Below, piece by piece: positions 17,620 through 23,334 of a stretch of DNA of 64,000 bases. A model generated the notes under the pieces. It made no database searches. It was given only the letters and a program-made list of their open reading frames with translations, and was not told the DNA's origin. The stretch comes from an uncultured archaeon (lineage in GTDB: Archaea; Asgardarchaeota; Thorarchaeia; Thorarchaeales; Thorarchaeaceae). Made by a program: the position numbers and the translations under genes. The stretch covers positions 1-64,000 of the forward strand of contig CAYYQL010000008.1 of NCBI GenBank assembly GCA_964473825.1, written 5' to 3'. Position 1 is the stretch's first letter. Every line of letters begins with the position of its first letter.

Positions 17620-17891
17620 ATACCGAGAAGGTCTACCGGAACTGGCAATGGTTCCCCCCTGTTCGAGGGACTCAGCCAAGTCATGCGGTACAGCCCCTGT
17701 CAAGGTCGGTCGTTCTTCAATATCCCTTATTGAAATCATGCGCATCAAAGAGCAGGAATCGACCCACTCGTTGATGAACCTAACTGGTGATAGCCTTTTT
17801 TAGGGGGGGTGTTGTCAGGTAGTCTAGTCAATAGGATTTGACTTTGAAACTCCGGGTTTCCGAAGAGGGAATTCGGGAGGAGAGAAGAAAT

Positions 17892-18941
17892 ATGAGTAAG
17901 AACCAAGTCATTGCGATAGCAATCATTGCAATCATTGGAGTGGCTGGTGTAGGTGTCTACTTCATGCTGCAACCAGTTCCCAACCCATACAATGTTGCGA
18001 TTGTGTTCGCGACAGGTGGTCTTGGAGATAAGTCCTTCAATGATGGCTGCTACGAGGGTGCGCTGAACGCGAAAGAAGACTACAATATCAACTTCACGTA
18101 TTCCGAACCCGATGATATCGCACAGTATGAAACATTCCTGAGGCGATATGCATCACATGCAGGATACATTGAACCTTTCGACCTTATCGTCAGTATCGGT
18201 TTTGATCAGGCTGATGCGGTGATGGCCGTGGCTGAGGACTACCCAGACCAACAGTTTGCAATAATAGACATGTTCATCGATCCGGCAGAGTACCCAAACG
18301 TAGCCTCCGTGCTCTTCACTGAGAATGAAGGAGCTGCGCTTGTAGGGGCAATTGCGGGAATGATGACTGAAACGAACAAGATCGGATTCTTGGGTGGAAT
18401 GGATATTCCTCTCATCAGGAAATTTGCCGCAGGATATGTGTATGGCGCTAACTTGACCAATTCTGGCATTGACCATGTTGAGTCATATGTTGGTGATTGG
18501 GCTGACATTGCCTTGGGCAAGAGCCTCACGGAGGGTATGTATAGCGGTGGTGCCGACATTGTATTTGCTGCTGCGGGTCGTTCTGGACTTGGTGCTTTCG
18601 AAGCAGCCAAGGAGGGCGAAGATGTCTGGGTGATTGGCGTTGACTCACCTCAGATGTATCTCGGAACCGCAGACCCCGATAATCCTGAACCCCCAACGGT
18701 CTGTTTGACATCATGTCTGAAGCGCGTTGATATGGCCATCTATGACATCATGTACGATGCAGTTCTTGGTTCATGGGATGGAGGTCTAATCTTCTATGAC
18801 CTTGAGAACGGTGGTCATGACTATGAGATCAATGAGGCACTTCTTGAGTTGCCTGATGATGTCATTGCCACGGTCGAGATGATAAAGACTGGAATCATCA
18901 ATGGTACTTATGTAGTGCCGGATGATGTCTACTGGACATAG
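17892..18941 (+). CDS. BMP family ABC transporter substrate-binding protein (nucleoside/purine type)
   Basis: GGLGDKSFND, GADIVFAAAGRSGLG, WVIGVDSPQ, KRVD; N-terminal TM anchor; start refined to ATG 17892. Confidence 0.92.
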   Translation: MSKNQVIAIAIIAIIGVAGVGVYFMLQPVPNPYNVAIVFATGGLGDKSFNDGCYEGALNAKEDYNINFTYSEPDDIAQYETFLRRYASHAGYIEPFDLIVSIGFDQADAVMAVAEDYPDQQFAIIDMFIDPAEYPNVASVLFTENEGAALVGAIAGMMTETNKIGFLGGMDIPLIRKFAAGYVYGANLTNSGIDHVESYVGDWADIALGKSLTEGMYSGGADIVFAAAGRSGLGAFEAAKEGEDVWVIGVDSPQMYLGTADPDNPEPPTVCLTSCLKRVDMAIYDIMYDAVLGSWDGGLIFYDLENGGHDYEINEALLELPDDVIATVEMIKTGIINGTYVVPDDVYWT

Positions 18942-18954
18942 GATAAAAATCAAT

Positions 18955-18992
18955 CAGAGGGGTCTATCCCCTCTGCATCTATTTGTTTTTCC
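18955..18992 (+). terminator. Stem-loop plus T tract after BMP gene
   Basis: CAGAGGGG-tctat-CCCCTCTG followed by catctatttgtttttcc. Confidence 0.6.
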
Positions 18993-19079: not shown

Positions 19080-20915
19080 GTGCAAAAGGAGGCATCTGCC
19101 ATCTACGCTGTTGAAATGGAGAACATCAGTAAGACCTTTCCTGGTGGGGTTGAGGCGAACAAGGACATCACACTAAGAATCAGGCAAGGTGAAGTCCACG
19201 GTCTCTTGGGTGAGAATGGTGCCGGTAAGACCACACTGATGAATATACTTTATGGATTCTTGGCGAGAGATGAGGGGTACGGGAGCATCTCGATTAAGGG
19301 TGAGGTAGTAGAGCTGGAATCTCCGGAGGGTGCTATTCGCCGAGGAGTGGGAATGGTTCATCAACACTACAAGCTCATTCGTCCTCTGACTGTGACTGAG
19401 AATGTGATGATGGGATATGAGACTCCTAGTCAGAAGCCCAATCTGATGCTCAGACTGATGATGGCAATTATTCTGCTATTCATGACATGGATGTTCCTCC
19501 AGTTCACTGATCTCTTCGTTGCCACAATTCTGACTTTATCAATGATGATACTGGTGTTGCTTGCATTCAAGGGTGACATAATCTTGACCCGTATCATCCA
19601 AACTCTGTACGTTATTGAACAGCAACACTCGGGTGTTGTAATGGCAGTTGCTCGATCGCTCTCTGGAGTTCTAAGCAACATCAAATATGGAGTCAGCTGT
19701 TTCTTCACCTTGGGTATCGCTAATGCCGAAGAGAGGATAAGGATAATAGCAGAGGAAAATGGCTTGGTGATCGACCCCAAGGCGAAAGTGCGCGATATCT
19801 CTGTAGGATTACAGCAACGCGTCGAGATCATCAAAGCTCTCTACAGAGAGGCAGAGATACTCATTCTTGATGAGCCAACATCAGTGCTCACTCCTCAAGA
19901 AGTGGACGAACTCTTTGTCACACTTCAGAAGTTCAGAGATGCTGGGAAGACTATCATTCTAATAACACACAAGCTCAGAGAACCAATGGCATTGTGCGAC
20001 CGAATCAGTGTTCTACGGGATGGTGAACTGGTAGGGACTGTTGATCGAGATGAAACCTCCCCTGCACAGCTTGCAAAGATGATGGTCGGACGAGAAGTTG
20101 TCTTTCGAGTAGAGAAGAGCCCACCTCATCCAGGCGATGTGATTCTCAGAGTTGAAGGCCTGGTCGTCGAAGATATACGCGGAGCTGTAGCAGTGGATAA
20201 TCTCTCGCTTGAGCTTCAACAAGCTGAGATTCTTGGCATTGCCGGAGTCGAAGGGAACGGTCAGACAGAGCTGGTAGAAGCACTGGTTGGCCTCACTGAG
20301 GCTGAATCGGGCCGGGTACTGGTCAGAGATGCTGAATCTGGGCAGTTCAAAGACATTACAGGGCGTAGGCCAAGGAAGGTTCGTGAAGAAGGGATTGCAC
20401 ATATTCCAGAGGACCGTCAGAAACGAGGACTCGTACAGCAATTCTCGGTTGAAGAGAATCTCGCTCTGGGACCCCACTACAGAGAACCTATCGCTTCCTC
20501 TACCGGCTTGCTTAGCTCGGATCGGATGCGCAGCAACGCGAACACACTGGTCGAAACCTATTCGATTAAGATTAGTGATGTTACGGATCCTGCCAGCACA
20601 TTATCTGGCGGAAATCAGCAGAAACTCGTGGTTGCCCGAGAGCTGAGCTCTCAGCCGCGTATTCTCATAGCAGCTCAGCCCACAAGGGGGCTTGACGTGG
20701 GGGCAACTGAGTACATCCACAACATGCTTGTTTCTCTTAGAGACTCTGGAGTGGGAGTGCTATTGATTTCTGCTGAGCTGGATGAGATAAGAAGTCTATC
20801 AGACAGAATAGCAGTGATCTTCAATGGTCGTATTGTAGCAGAAAAGGATCCGGATACGGCAACCGCTGAAGAAATCGGCCTGCTGATGGCTGGTCATGCA
20901 GAGGTGGTTCCATGA
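19080..20915 (+). CDS. ABC transporter ATP-binding protein (tandem NBD, CUT2/NupA-like) with hydrophobic insertion
   Basis: GENGAGKT, ISVGLQQRVEI, ILDEPT, ITHKL; second NBD LSGGNQQK, AQPTRGLDVG; ~95-aa extra segment after TENVMMGYE. Confidence 0.93.
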   Translation: MQKEASAIYAVEMENISKTFPGGVEANKDITLRIRQGEVHGLLGENGAGKTTLMNILYGFLARDEGYGSISIKGEVVELESPEGAIRRGVGMVHQHYKLIRPLTVTENVMMGYETPSQKPNLMLRLMMAIILLFMTWMFLQFTDLFVATILTLSMMILVLLAFKGDIILTRIIQTLYVIEQQHSGVVMAVARSLSGVLSNIKYGVSCFFTLGIANAEERIRIIAEENGLVIDPKAKVRDISVGLQQRVEIIKALYREAEILILDEPTSVLTPQEVDELFVTLQKFRDAGKTIILITHKLREPMALCDRISVLRDGELVGTVDRDETSPAQLAKMMVGREVVFRVEKSPPHPGDVILRVEGLVVEDIRGAVAVDNLSLELQQAEILGIAGVEGNGQTELVEALVGLTEAESGRVLVRDAESGQFKDITGRRPRKVREEGIAHIPEDRQKRGLVQQFSVEENLALGPHYREPIASSTGLLSSDRMRSNANTLVETYSIKISDVTDPASTLSGGNQQKLVVARELSSQPRILIAAQPTRGLDVGATEYIHNMLVSLRDSGVGVLLISAELDEIRSLSDRIAVIFNGRIVAEKDPDTATAEEIGLLMAGHAEVVP

Positions 20916-22384
20916 CGCAAGAACGAATGCTGGAAGAAGAACAGGTGGCAGACAAGAGCTCGGGTTTCGCTGTGCTGAATAAGATCATTGCTAAGTTCTC
21001 AAGTGAGAGCTTCAAGAAGGAACTCGTGACCACGGTGGTAGCCATCTTTCTCTCGTTTGGTATCGCTGCTTTGATCATTGCAGCAGCTGGATATGACCCA
21101 GGTAGTGCCTTTGCAGCGCTGGGACTGGGAGCAATACTGAATCTAGATGAAGTCTTATGGGCGGCAACTCCACTATGTCTTACAGGTCTCGCAGTAGCTC
21201 TCGCCTTTAGATGTGGTCTTTTCAATATCGGCGCTGAGGGTCAGTTGTACATAGGTTCTATCGCAGCGACAGCCGTCGGCTATATGATTGCACTGCCGAT
21301 CGTGGTACATCAGATAGCTTGCATCGCAATCGGAGTTCTTGCAGGTTTTCTCTATGGCCTCCTACCGGGGCTGCTTAAGGCCTATCGAGGTGCTCATGAA
21401 GTTGTAACTACCATGATGTTAAGCTACTCGGCAGTCTACTTGACTCAGTGGCTCGTATCACAGGGGCCCATGCACAATCCTGGTGATTGGAGAAGTGTTT
21501 CTCCATTCATCTTTGACACTGCACGACTTCCCAAGTTGTTCGGGAGCCCGTTTCTCAATCTCGGTTTTCTGATTGCGGTGGCTTGCGTCGTTCTTGTTGA
21601 TGTCTTCATCAACCGTACTGTTATGGGATATGAAATGAGAGCAGTCGGACACAATCAGGATGCGGCTGAGACTGCGGGTATCAATTCAAAACGTAACGCT
21701 GCAATGGCACTTGCACTCAGTGGAGGTCTGGCAGGACTGGCAGGGGCACAGGAAATCATGGGCTACTACAATCGCTTCTATGATGGCTGGTCTGCTGGGA
21801 TTGGGTTCGATGGGATCACTGTGGCTGTCTTTGGCAGAAACAATGCTTGGGGTGTTTTTGGAGCAGCTCTCTTCTGGGGCGCTCTCAAGGCGGGAGGTGG
21901 GTATATGCAGACAAACGCGAATGTTCCAGTGGAGATTGTGAAAGTAATCCAAGGTCTCGTGGTGCTATTCGTTGCGGCGCCAAGACTCATTGACTGGCTT
22001 GCGAACAAGGGAGTTGAATATGCTGAATGGTTGCGTGAGTCTCGGCCAAGCCATGCAATACTGAACGTTACGGCGTTAGGTCACAGCATTCTGGGCTTCT
22101 TTCTTGCTGTGCTTATACTGAGAGTATCTCTCTTCCTCGCAGTCATCGGGTTTGTCCTCTGCTTCACAAGTCTTGTCGCTTCCGTGTTCCACTACAAACG
22201 TGACCGTAGACGTGTTGCTACAACTGCTGTTGCTGGAGTCCTCTGGTTTGGCCTGCTTGTTGTCGGATGGTCGCTCAGTGGTGTTGCATTGACCGCGATA
22301 ACTATGGGACTAGTTGCACTCGTGCTTTCTTGCCTTCTTGTAAGAATACGCGGCCAGGTGCACTCTGGAGGTGAGAGTCAGTGA
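20912..22384 (+). CDS. ABC transporter permease (NupB-like) with C-terminal extra TM extension
   Basis: GLFNIGAEGQ, HEVVTTMML, GYEMRAVGHN..AA..AGI, GFDGITVA; ATGA overlap with the ATPase gene. Confidence 0.92.
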   Translation: MTQERMLEEEQVADKSSGFAVLNKIIAKFSSESFKKELVTTVVAIFLSFGIAALIIAAAGYDPGSAFAALGLGAILNLDEVLWAATPLCLTGLAVALAFRCGLFNIGAEGQLYIGSIAATAVGYMIALPIVVHQIACIAIGVLAGFLYGLLPGLLKAYRGAHEVVTTMMLSYSAVYLTQWLVSQGPMHNPGDWRSVSPFIFDTARLPKLFGSPFLNLGFLIAVACVVLVDVFINRTVMGYEMRAVGHNQDAAETAGINSKRNAAMALALSGGLAGLAGAQEIMGYYNRFYDGWSAGIGFDGITVAVFGRNNAWGVFGAALFWGALKAGGGYMQTNANVPVEIVKVIQGLVVLFVAAPRLIDWLANKGVEYAEWLRESRPSHAILNVTALGHSILGFFLAVLILRVSLFLAVIGFVLCFTSLVASVFHYKRDRRRVATTAVAGVLWFGLLVVGWSLSGVALTAITMGLVALVLSCLLVRIRGQVHSGGESQ

Positions 22385-23334
22385 TGCAGTTAGATGCCAT
22401 TTCTGTTGCAATGCTGGGGTTCTTACTAAGAACTACACTCCAAATGGCGACACCACTAGTGCTGACCGCTCTTGGCGGAATGTACAGCGAGAGGTCGGGA
22501 ATTGTGAACATCGGTTTGGAGGGGATGATGCTGATAGGTGCCTTCAGTGCAGCAGCAGCCACCTACTTCTCTGGAAATCCGTGGCTTGGTCTCATTGTTG
22601 GTGTGTTCTCTGGCGGGGCGCTAGCAGCTGCTCACGCAGTACTATGCGTCAAACTGAAGGGAAACCACATAGTCAGCGGTACTGGTGTGATTCTATTCGC
22701 CACGGGATTTACAACGCTGATGCTGGAGGTCATCTGGCAGCAGAAGGGGGTTTCAGACCCAGTCACACCCCTTCCCAAAGTTCGAATTCCTTGGGTTCAG
22801 GACATTCCCCTTCTGGGGAACATAATCGGTGCTCTTTCTCCGATTGTATACATGATGTTCTTCGCAGTCATCATAAGCTGGTTTATACTTTTCAAGACAT
22901 CTTTCGGTTTGAGACTGAGGGCCGCTGGAGAAGATCCAAGCACACTTGATGCGGCAGGCGTCAATGTGGAGACTATGCGGATGATAGGAGTGATTGTTAG
23001 CGGGTGCTTGGCTGGCTTGGGGGGTGCCTATCTCTCTATCGGGTTTGGCTCGAGCTTTGGGAAAGTGATGACTTCAGGCAGGGGTTTCATAGCACTGGCT
23101 GCGCTGATTTTTGGTAACTGGACTCCCATAGGATGCTTCTTAGCGGGCACCTTCTTTGGCTTCTTGGATGGTCTTCAGATTGTCATCAAGGTCAGTTTTC
23201 CTGCGCTACTGCCCTATAGCAATTTTGTGCAAATGTTGCCTTACGTGCTAGTGGTGATTGCATTGGCGGGGATTCGCCGTTCGATACCTCCCAAGGCAAT
23301 AGGGCAACCATACGAAAAAGAGAAAAGTCTTTAG
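22381..23334 (+). CDS. ABC transporter permease (NupC-like)
   Basis: SERSGIVNIGLEGMML, GLRLRAAGEDP, GRGFIALAALIFGNW, P.AIGQPY. Confidence 0.93.
   Translation: MMQLDAISVAMLGFLLRTTLQMATPLVLTALGGMYSERSGIVNIGLEGMMLIGAFSAAAATYFSGNPWLGLIVGVFSGGALAAAHAVLCVKLKGNHIVSGTGVILFATGFTTLMLEVIWQQKGVSDPVTPLPKVRIPWVQDIPLLGNIIGALSPIVYMMFFAVIISWFILFKTSFGLRLRAAGEDPSTLDAAGVNVETMRMIGVIVSGCLAGLGGAYLSIGFGSSFGKVMTSGRGFIALAALIFGNWTPIGCFLAGTFFGFLDGLQIVIKVSFPALLPYSNFVQMLPYVLVVIALAGIRRSIPPKAIGQPYEKEKSL

Follow-up and report, generated by a model that had tools for sequence, protein, structure and literature searches.

A predicted membrane hairpin inside the first nucleotide-binding domain of a tandem importer ATPase from an Asgard archaeon

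The locus and its genes

The stretch of DNA analysed here (hereafter the window) comprises 64,000 nt of contig CAYYQL010000008.1 from an uncultured archaeon of the Asgardarchaeota (family Thorarchaeaceae), and all coordinates given below refer to it. Its subject is the gene of a tandem ATP-binding cassette (ABC) ATPase (19080..20915, +), which starts with GTG, is an uninterrupted open reading frame (ORF) according to the ORF list and its translation, and encodes 611 amino acids (aa) with two nucleotide-binding domains (NBDs). Inside the first of these (NBD1), the protein carries an insert of 102 aa with two hydrophobic helices of membrane class, which is conserved among relatives and which probably anchors the ATPase in the membrane. 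The gene is the second in an operon with the order Bmp-family binding protein, tandem ATPase, permease 1, and permease 2, all encoded on the forward strand.

Operon content and domain composition identify the gene product as the ATPase of a Bmp/PnrA-type (nucleoside-type, CUT2-like) ABC importer, with the traits of that type present, namely a PF02608 binding protein, two NBDs on one polypeptide, and two PF02653 permeases. The label “nucleoside-type” was taken solely from the family of the binding protein. Two ABC_tran stretches were matched in the ATPase by Pfam, the first match bridging the gap (aa 28–268), and the NCBIfam models of tandem ATPases (xylose, ribose, B6) matched at full length with both halves covered. 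Nearest among the NCBIfam models were the tandem ATPases of sugar and vitamin-B6 importers; the best match, NF047930 (putative B6 transporter ATPase), reached 417.5 bits against a cut-off of 670. As every curated equivalog cut-off was missed, no substrate was assigned.

The gene of the substrate-binding protein (17838..18941, +; PF02608 Bmp, E-value of 2.2e-54) encodes a member of the Bmp/PnrA family with an N-terminal membrane anchor, and the length of the same-genus ortholog (349 aa) points to the ATG at about 17892 as a possible true start. Between this gene and the ATPase gene, a terminator-like element was observed at 18956–18990 (an inverted repeat, AGAGGGG/CCCCTCT, around a 5-nt loop and then a T-rich run), which could raise the transcript of the binding protein above that of the membrane subunits. 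The start of the ATPase was placed upstream of the first ATG, because the conserved N-terminal YAVE motif (aa 9–12) requires such a start, and its stop overlaps the start of permease 1 (ATGA). Permease 1 (20912..22384, +; 490 aa, PF02653) consists of a BPD_transp_2 core (aa 78–354) and a hydrophobic C-terminal tail of ~130 aa (aa ~360–490, window 21990–22384), in which the Kyte-Doolittle 19-residue mean (KD19) peaks at aa 398–416, 435–453, and 458–476. The start of permease 2 (22381..23334, +; 317 aa, BPD_transp_2, PF02653) overlaps the stop of permease 1. Both permeases matched PF02653 with E-values of 2e-39 and 4.5e-40, and the gene order was the same in 40 related loci.

Catalytic motifs of the two domains

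The N-terminal half of NBD1 (19209..19415, +) holds Walker A (GENGAGKT, aa 44–51), the Q-loop residue Q95, and the first helix of the helical subdomain (aa 104–112). Its C-terminal half (19725..19976, +) extends from the second helix of that subdomain (from aa 216) over the signature SVGLQQ (aa 241–246) to E265 of Walker B and H297 of the H-loop, both halves being delimited by motifs and by alignments to PDB entries. All catalytic residues of NBD1 are present (K50, Q95, E265, and H297) and invariant in the family; its signature is non-canonical. NBD2, delimited by motifs (20133..20894, +), is free of an insert in the present genome. Its motifs (window 20244–20786) comprise a Walker A without lysine (GNGQTE), a Walker B without glutamate (AAQPT, in which Gln-Pro-Thr replaces Asp-Glu), an H-loop without histidine, and the canonical signature LSGGNQQ, and this pattern is invariant across the family. 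One consensus ATP site and one degenerate site are predicted from the motif pattern. Since NBD1 has the catalytic set and NBD2 is degenerate, the insert sits in the catalytically competent domain.

Position and composition of the insert

For comparison, the 120 best cluster representatives were aligned together with the ATPase (121 proteins), plus the ATPases of 40 related genomic loci and 8 outgroups. A related-loci search with the family alignment returned mostly bacterial loci because of its generic patterns, and these loci served as outgroup only. From the alignment of 121 plus 48 relatives, the insert was delimited to aa 113–214 (19416..19721, +). In the preliminary description of this DNA, a membrane-helix insertion inside NBD1 had been placed at 19422–19703 (i.e., aa 115–208), which falls within the delimited insert, and the strings quoted there were found in frame (HQH at aa 94–96, TVTENVMMG at aa 104–112, SVGLQQ at aa 241–246) in an ORF without stops. 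Alignments to PDB entries are interrupted between aa 111 and aa 219, an interval in which ABCA4 has 15 residues. Compared to the 28-aa loop already present in the nearest Asgard relatives, the net gain amounts to ~74 aa; compared to bacterial relatives, it amounts to ~90 aa.

Two stretches of the insert have KD19 peaks of 2.24 and 2.68, values well within the range of membrane helices, whereas the highest KD19 downstream of the insert (aa 251–611) is 1.32. The first peak belongs to predicted membrane helix 1 (aa 122–142; 19443..19505, +) and coincides with a helix of the AlphaFold2 model over the same residues. The second belongs to predicted membrane helix 2 (aa 145–163; 19512..19568, +), which is linked to helix 1 via the two-residue turn T143–D144 and forms the first half of the AlphaFold2 helix 145–182. 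Thereafter, a predicted cytoplasmic stalk that extends helix 2 (aa 164–182) and an amphipathic return helix (aa 186–206) were recognised (19569..19697, +; AlphaFold2 helices 145–182 and 186–206, pLDDT 75–90; hydrophobic moment up to 1.6 at aa 184–203). A canonical soluble subunit has no membrane segment inside an NBD; here, both KD19 peaks lie between Q-loop and signature. Of the 47 ORFs of the genome with an ABC domain, no other was found to have membrane-type helices within that domain. No similarity was detected between the insert and the two permeases or any other ORF of the window (blastp E-value of 4.3; phmmer matched the insert itself alone).

Sequencing support of the insert

Contigs from three microbial-mat DNA runs cover the ATPase gene, and one of them spans the whole gene at a depth of ~61. 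In a later sample, a strain variant was recovered across the insert that differs by substitutions alone, with neither indels nor joints. The insert was thus indel-free in contigs of three runs, the strain variant included, as well as in dozens of independent related assemblies, so that the read support on which the preliminary description had made its claim depend was obtained. It is hardly credible that the insert is an artefact, i.e., a misassembly, intein, intron, or recent mobile element removed before the protein matures. The sole pointer in that direction was a slightly lower GC content of the insert region (0.43 vs 0.47–0.53), which hydrophobic codons would give. Against it stand the indel-free contigs and the many assemblies just named, the lack of flanking repeats beyond chance-size matches of 10–15 nt, and the Pfam and NCBIfam searches of aa 105–225, in which neither a family model of the insert nor a splicing or homing domain was matched.

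Structure model

AlphaFold2 was run on an alignment of 76 sequences and yielded a mean pLDDT of 87.4. In the model, the insert consists of a strand (aa 116–120), a helix (aa 122–142), a continuous helix of 38 residues (aa 145–182), a further helix (aa 186–206), and a strand (aa 209–211) that pairs with the first one, with block pLDDT values of 82–96 across the insert helices. The modelled helix lengths suggest a hairpin running up and back through the membrane, a stalk of ~19 residues, and a return helix along the domain. When the model was compared to the PDB with Foldseek, ordinary tandem or paired ABC domains were the only matches (Mtb OppD/DppD, EttA, ABCB1). For the insert-free relative P0113, the same site was modelled as a disordered loop (pLDDT <50); the insert therefore appears to have grown from a flexible, permissive loop. 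In ABC domains, the helix that lines the groove for the coupling helix of the permease (in CFTR, the one carrying F508) is followed by the “structurally diverse region” of the helical subdomain. Its counterpart here was taken to be the helix ahead of the insert (ENV..G), so that the insertion point presumably lies on the permease-facing side.

Conservation, charge pattern, and selection

Conservation was determined on the non-redundant homologs with two helices (n = 59). Median identity among these forms was 21% in the insert and 70% in the rest of the protein. Helices 1 and 2 nevertheless had hydropathy maxima with medians of 2.42 and 2.55 and minima of 1.92 and 1.70, compared to a median maximum of 1.25 in the rest of the protein. 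On average, 2.45 lysines and arginines (K/R) were counted in the 12 residues before helix 1 and 1.68 after helix 2, and none in the turn. The median span from flanking K/R to flanking K/R was 44 residues, which are almost free of charge. This pattern follows the positive-inside rule and is the one to be expected for a hairpin whose two ends are cytoplasmic. The membrane helices reported in the preliminary description were thereby recovered, as two helices of membrane class by hydropathy with K/R-rich flanks and a K/R-free turn, modelled as helices by AlphaFold2.

In the homologs, the turn has 2–3 residues and is often acidic or contains Pro/Gly. A turn this short would also suit a hairpin that does not span the membrane and instead forms a re-entrant or monotopic wedge in the cytoplasmic leaflet, or lies buried in an interface with the cytoplasmic loops of the permeases. 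This arrangement is nevertheless improbable, as the helices have 19–21 uncharged residues each, enough to cross the bilayer, with a median K/R-to-K/R distance of 44, and as versions with four helices at the same site (128–193 aa) are easier to reconcile with true passes.

Relative to the ortholog from the same genus, the ratio of nonsynonymous to synonymous substitution rates (dN/dS) was 0.34 in the insert and 0.075 elsewhere. By this measure, purifying selection acts on the insert, if less strongly than on the core, as would fit lipid-facing helices. The low identity also bears on a reading in which the hairpin would play an active part in coupling or regulation, either as an extra lever on the permease helices or as a sensor of the bilayer state that tunes ATPase activity. 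The helical subdomain of ABC domains rotates against the RecA-like core upon ATP binding, and a lever would be rooted in it: the insertion site directly follows the helix that forms the groove in the catalytic NBD1, the continuous helix aa 145–182 of the model would join the membrane part rigidly to the domain, and membrane inserts recur in both NBDs of relatives (see below). A median identity of 21%, with no polar or motif residue kept invariant, is more in keeping with an anchor that faces the lipids, and insert-free relatives have the same permeases; an active role of this kind was consequently regarded as possible, if rather unlikely.

Distribution among relatives

Lengths at the insertion site fell into distinct classes. 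Relatives from Bacteria, Halobacteria, Hadarchaeota, and the Asgard family f22 have 9–13 residues and no helix of membrane class, which confirms the short loop that the preliminary description had stated for this place in ordinary tandem ATPases. Many Thorarchaeota-like relatives have 26–58 non-hydrophobic residues, likewise without a membrane-class helix. Most insert-bearing forms have 83–103 residues with two such helices, and larger ones have 128 or 193 residues with four. An NBD1 insert of membrane type was present in 66/121 aligned proteins, distributed over at least six genera of family f1 (the family of the window), and no membrane-type insert was found in 52/121. The insert is thus conserved among Asgard orthologs, and it was absent from the bacterial and other archaeal Bmp-type ATPases compared. 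The relatives come from Thorarchaeota, Lokiarchaeota, or Promethearchaeota metagenome-assembled genomes (MAGs), and their source labels say no more than ABC transporter ATP-binding protein.

All 1.84 billion representatives at 50% identity were searched with a profile built from the insert and short flanking segments. Eight proteins were found at an E-value of <0.001, all from the Asgard family of Bmp-type ATPases; the four best matches reach into the insert, and the weaker ones cover mainly the conserved flanks. As all matches came from its own family, the insert is without detectable relatives elsewhere. A feature search of the ESM Atlas with the insert gave no usable match.

Among the 301 genomes sampled from the phylum, a Bmp-type ATPase was present in 58 of the 76 genomes of family f1. 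Insert-bearing forms were found in genera g1, g5, g6, g9, g11, and g15 of this family, and none was seen in the examined loci of g2, g3, g4, g10, g12, and g14 or of families f12, f14, and f22. Most genomes have a single copy of the Bmp-type ATPase, and the sole copy of the present genome is insert-bearing. Within genus g9, three forms of the ATPase occur, each usually as the sole copy: with the NBD1 insert (G146, G191, G103, G275), without insert (G093, G266, G137, G087), and with an insert in NBD2 only (G215). This mix suggests an exchange of operons or repeated loss and gain.

In trees built after removal of the insert columns, the insert-bearing proteins formed three well-supported subclades interleaved with insert-free proteins, corresponding to a minimum of three changes. 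Strongly supported branches force only one change, and monophyly of the insert-bearing forms was not rejected in the approximately unbiased (AU) test (p-AU 0.38). The pattern may reflect either one gain with losses or exchanges or several gains.

The spread of insert-free forms through sister lineages is one of the points that speak for a neutral origin, in which a permissive loop tolerated an expansion that was then kept by drift or became hard to lose once embedded in the membrane. The site is disordered and variable in relatives, the lengths form a ladder (9–13, 26–36, 45–58), and constraint is relaxed compared to the core. Such an origin is very unlikely, given that two membrane-class helices with basic flanks were kept over about 60 diverged clusters despite an identity of 21%, that dN/dS in the insert is well below 1, and that membrane inserts also occur at a second site.

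This second site lies in NBD2, flanked by the strands that follow Walker A and by the helix that precedes the Q-loop (corresponding to window 20307–20369, aa 410–430), and some relatives carry there a hydrophobic insert of 63–74 aa (2 helices) or 161–171 aa (4–5 helices) with KD19 values of 2.0–2.75. It occurs alone in P0120, P0075, P0125, and L128, and together with an NBD1 insert in P0047/60/66/78/86, L127, P0058, P0059/72/90, and L129; it is absent from the ATPase of the window. The NBD2 insert indicates that ATPases of this family gained membrane segments more than once. A more far-reaching proposal, which is put forward tentatively, is that the ATPase subunits of Asgard Bmp-type importers repeatedly took up membrane helices, at two or more sites and with 2 to about 8 helices. 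The “soluble motor” would then supply integral parts of the membrane domain, and these systems would form a distinct architectural class of importers in which NBD and permeases are coupled partly via covalently attached transmembrane helices and not solely via the coupling-helix groove.

Two further features were observed among the relatives. At loci L149 and L150 (genomes G259 and G139, family f22), the two permeases appear fused into an ORF of 972 aa, and the ATPase has 13 residues at the insertion site. The ATPase of L130 (genome G181, family f14) has an N-terminal extension of 60 aa with two CxxC pairs (zinc-ribbon-like) ahead of NBD1.

Proposed mechanism

Taken together, the hairpin probably spans the membrane and makes the ATPase an integral membrane protein that is tethered beside its permeases. 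The preliminary description had proposed an integrally membrane-anchored importer ATPase; of this, the membrane-class hairpin was confirmed as predicted and conserved, and insertion into the membrane is what we infer from it. In the proposed mechanism, a flexible surface loop of the NBD1 helical subdomain, directly after the groove-lining helix, would have expanded into a membrane-spanning hairpin and a cytoplasmic stalk of two helices, with both ends of the hairpin in the cytoplasm. During synthesis, the first ~120 N-terminal residues of NBD1 would be made, the hairpin would then be inserted co-translationally, and the remainder would fold in the cytoplasm, so that NBD1 would close around the stalk at its base. 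The ATPase would thereby be permanently tethered in the membrane next to the permeases, with the hairpin probably packed against permease helices. With the tether attached to the catalytic NBD1, the ATPase would keep its active half at the transmembrane interface throughout the ATP cycle. A plausible benefit would be that the motor is kept on the transporter through the nucleotide cycle; for the related ribose system, a 2015 study by Clifton et al. reportedly found the association of RbsA with RbsC to be nucleotide-dependent, which was used as a lead and not as evidence.

The tethered arrangement is supported by the operon, whose order and overlapping stop and start codons are intact, and by the intact motifs of NBD1. 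Several observations weigh against it. The dN/dS of the insert is about five times that of the core, and a simple sum on an approximate Hessa-type scale was negative for most homologs and positive for a few. Many close relatives, some of them in the same genus, have no insert, and it is not required for transport, since these insert-free relatives work. Finally, insert and permease-1 tail do not co-vary, and thus no dedicated partner was identified. Co-evolution of insert and tail had been considered, and strict co-variation was rejected: in 40 operons, permease 1 has 490–536 aa including the tail, irrespective of whether the ATPase bears the insert. All 38 separately encoded permease-1 orthologs examined in families f1 and f12 likewise have 490–690 aa, with or without an ATPase insert. 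The hairpin may dock on a tail of permease 1 that existed before it.

Significance

In the textbook ABC importer, a soluble ATPase docks on the permeases solely through the groove for the coupling helix. The ATPase described here appears to be integral to the membrane via a hairpin rooted beside this groove, a layout conserved in many uncultured Asgard archaea. If the hairpin spans the membrane, it raises the questions of how a domain folds around a co-translationally inserted hairpin, whether archaeal membranes or lifestyles favour tethered motors, and whether energy coupling involves the helices. Insert-bearing and insert-free close relatives provide natural matched pairs for testing the role of the tether. 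For annotation, the consequence is that the labels of such proteins name an ordinary ABC ATP-binding protein and overlook its topology.

Comparison with known systems

The operon resembles those of Bmp/PnrA-type nucleoside importers (NupABC-BmpA/YufNOPQ, Treponema PnrA-RfuABCD, and Borrelia Bmp systems) in gene order, in the degenerate NBD2, and in the catalytic NBD1, and outside the insert the ATPase is 36–52% identical to bacterial ATPases of this type. It differs from the members in bacteria, haloarchaea, and Hadarchaeota at the insertion site, where these have 9–13 residues and the present protein has 102 with two membrane-class helices. Insert-free Asgard orthologs (e.g., P0113, 534 aa) are 60–67% identical and share the operon as well as the extended tail of permease 1, whereas their site is occupied by a non-hydrophobic loop of 26–58 residues that is disordered in AlphaFold2 models.

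Subdomains inserted into ABC domains are known from other proteins with tandem NBDs. In ABC1 of bacterial ABCF proteins such as EttA, the insert is the Arm, and in ABC2 of eEF3, it is the chromo subdomain. Both vary between lineages, are poorly conserved, and were gained or lost within subfamilies; the Arms are rich in Arg/Lys and bind the ribosomal L1 stalk (PMC6723617). The present insert shares with them its location within an ABC domain, and EttA was among the best structural matches of the model. Unlike the Arm, it is hydrophobic, belongs to a transporter, and has an almost charge-free core stretch of 44 residues, so that it does not classify as Arm-like. A second parallel is the coiled coil of Rad50/SMC proteins, a soluble antiparallel helical element that extends over tens of nanometres and serves in DNA tethering. 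Like the insert, it leaves and re-enters the ABC fold between the half with Walker A and Q-loop and the half with signature and Walker B; it is not homologous to the insert. All three precedents (ABCF Arm, eEF3 chromo subdomain, and Rad50/SMC coiled coil) are thus soluble. Literature searches yielded no description of membrane helices inside an importer ATPase, consistent with the preliminary description, to which no description of the architecture was known. The ATPase is a real and conserved, apparently undescribed variant of a well-known machine, one that departs from the solubility by which this subunit is otherwise defined.

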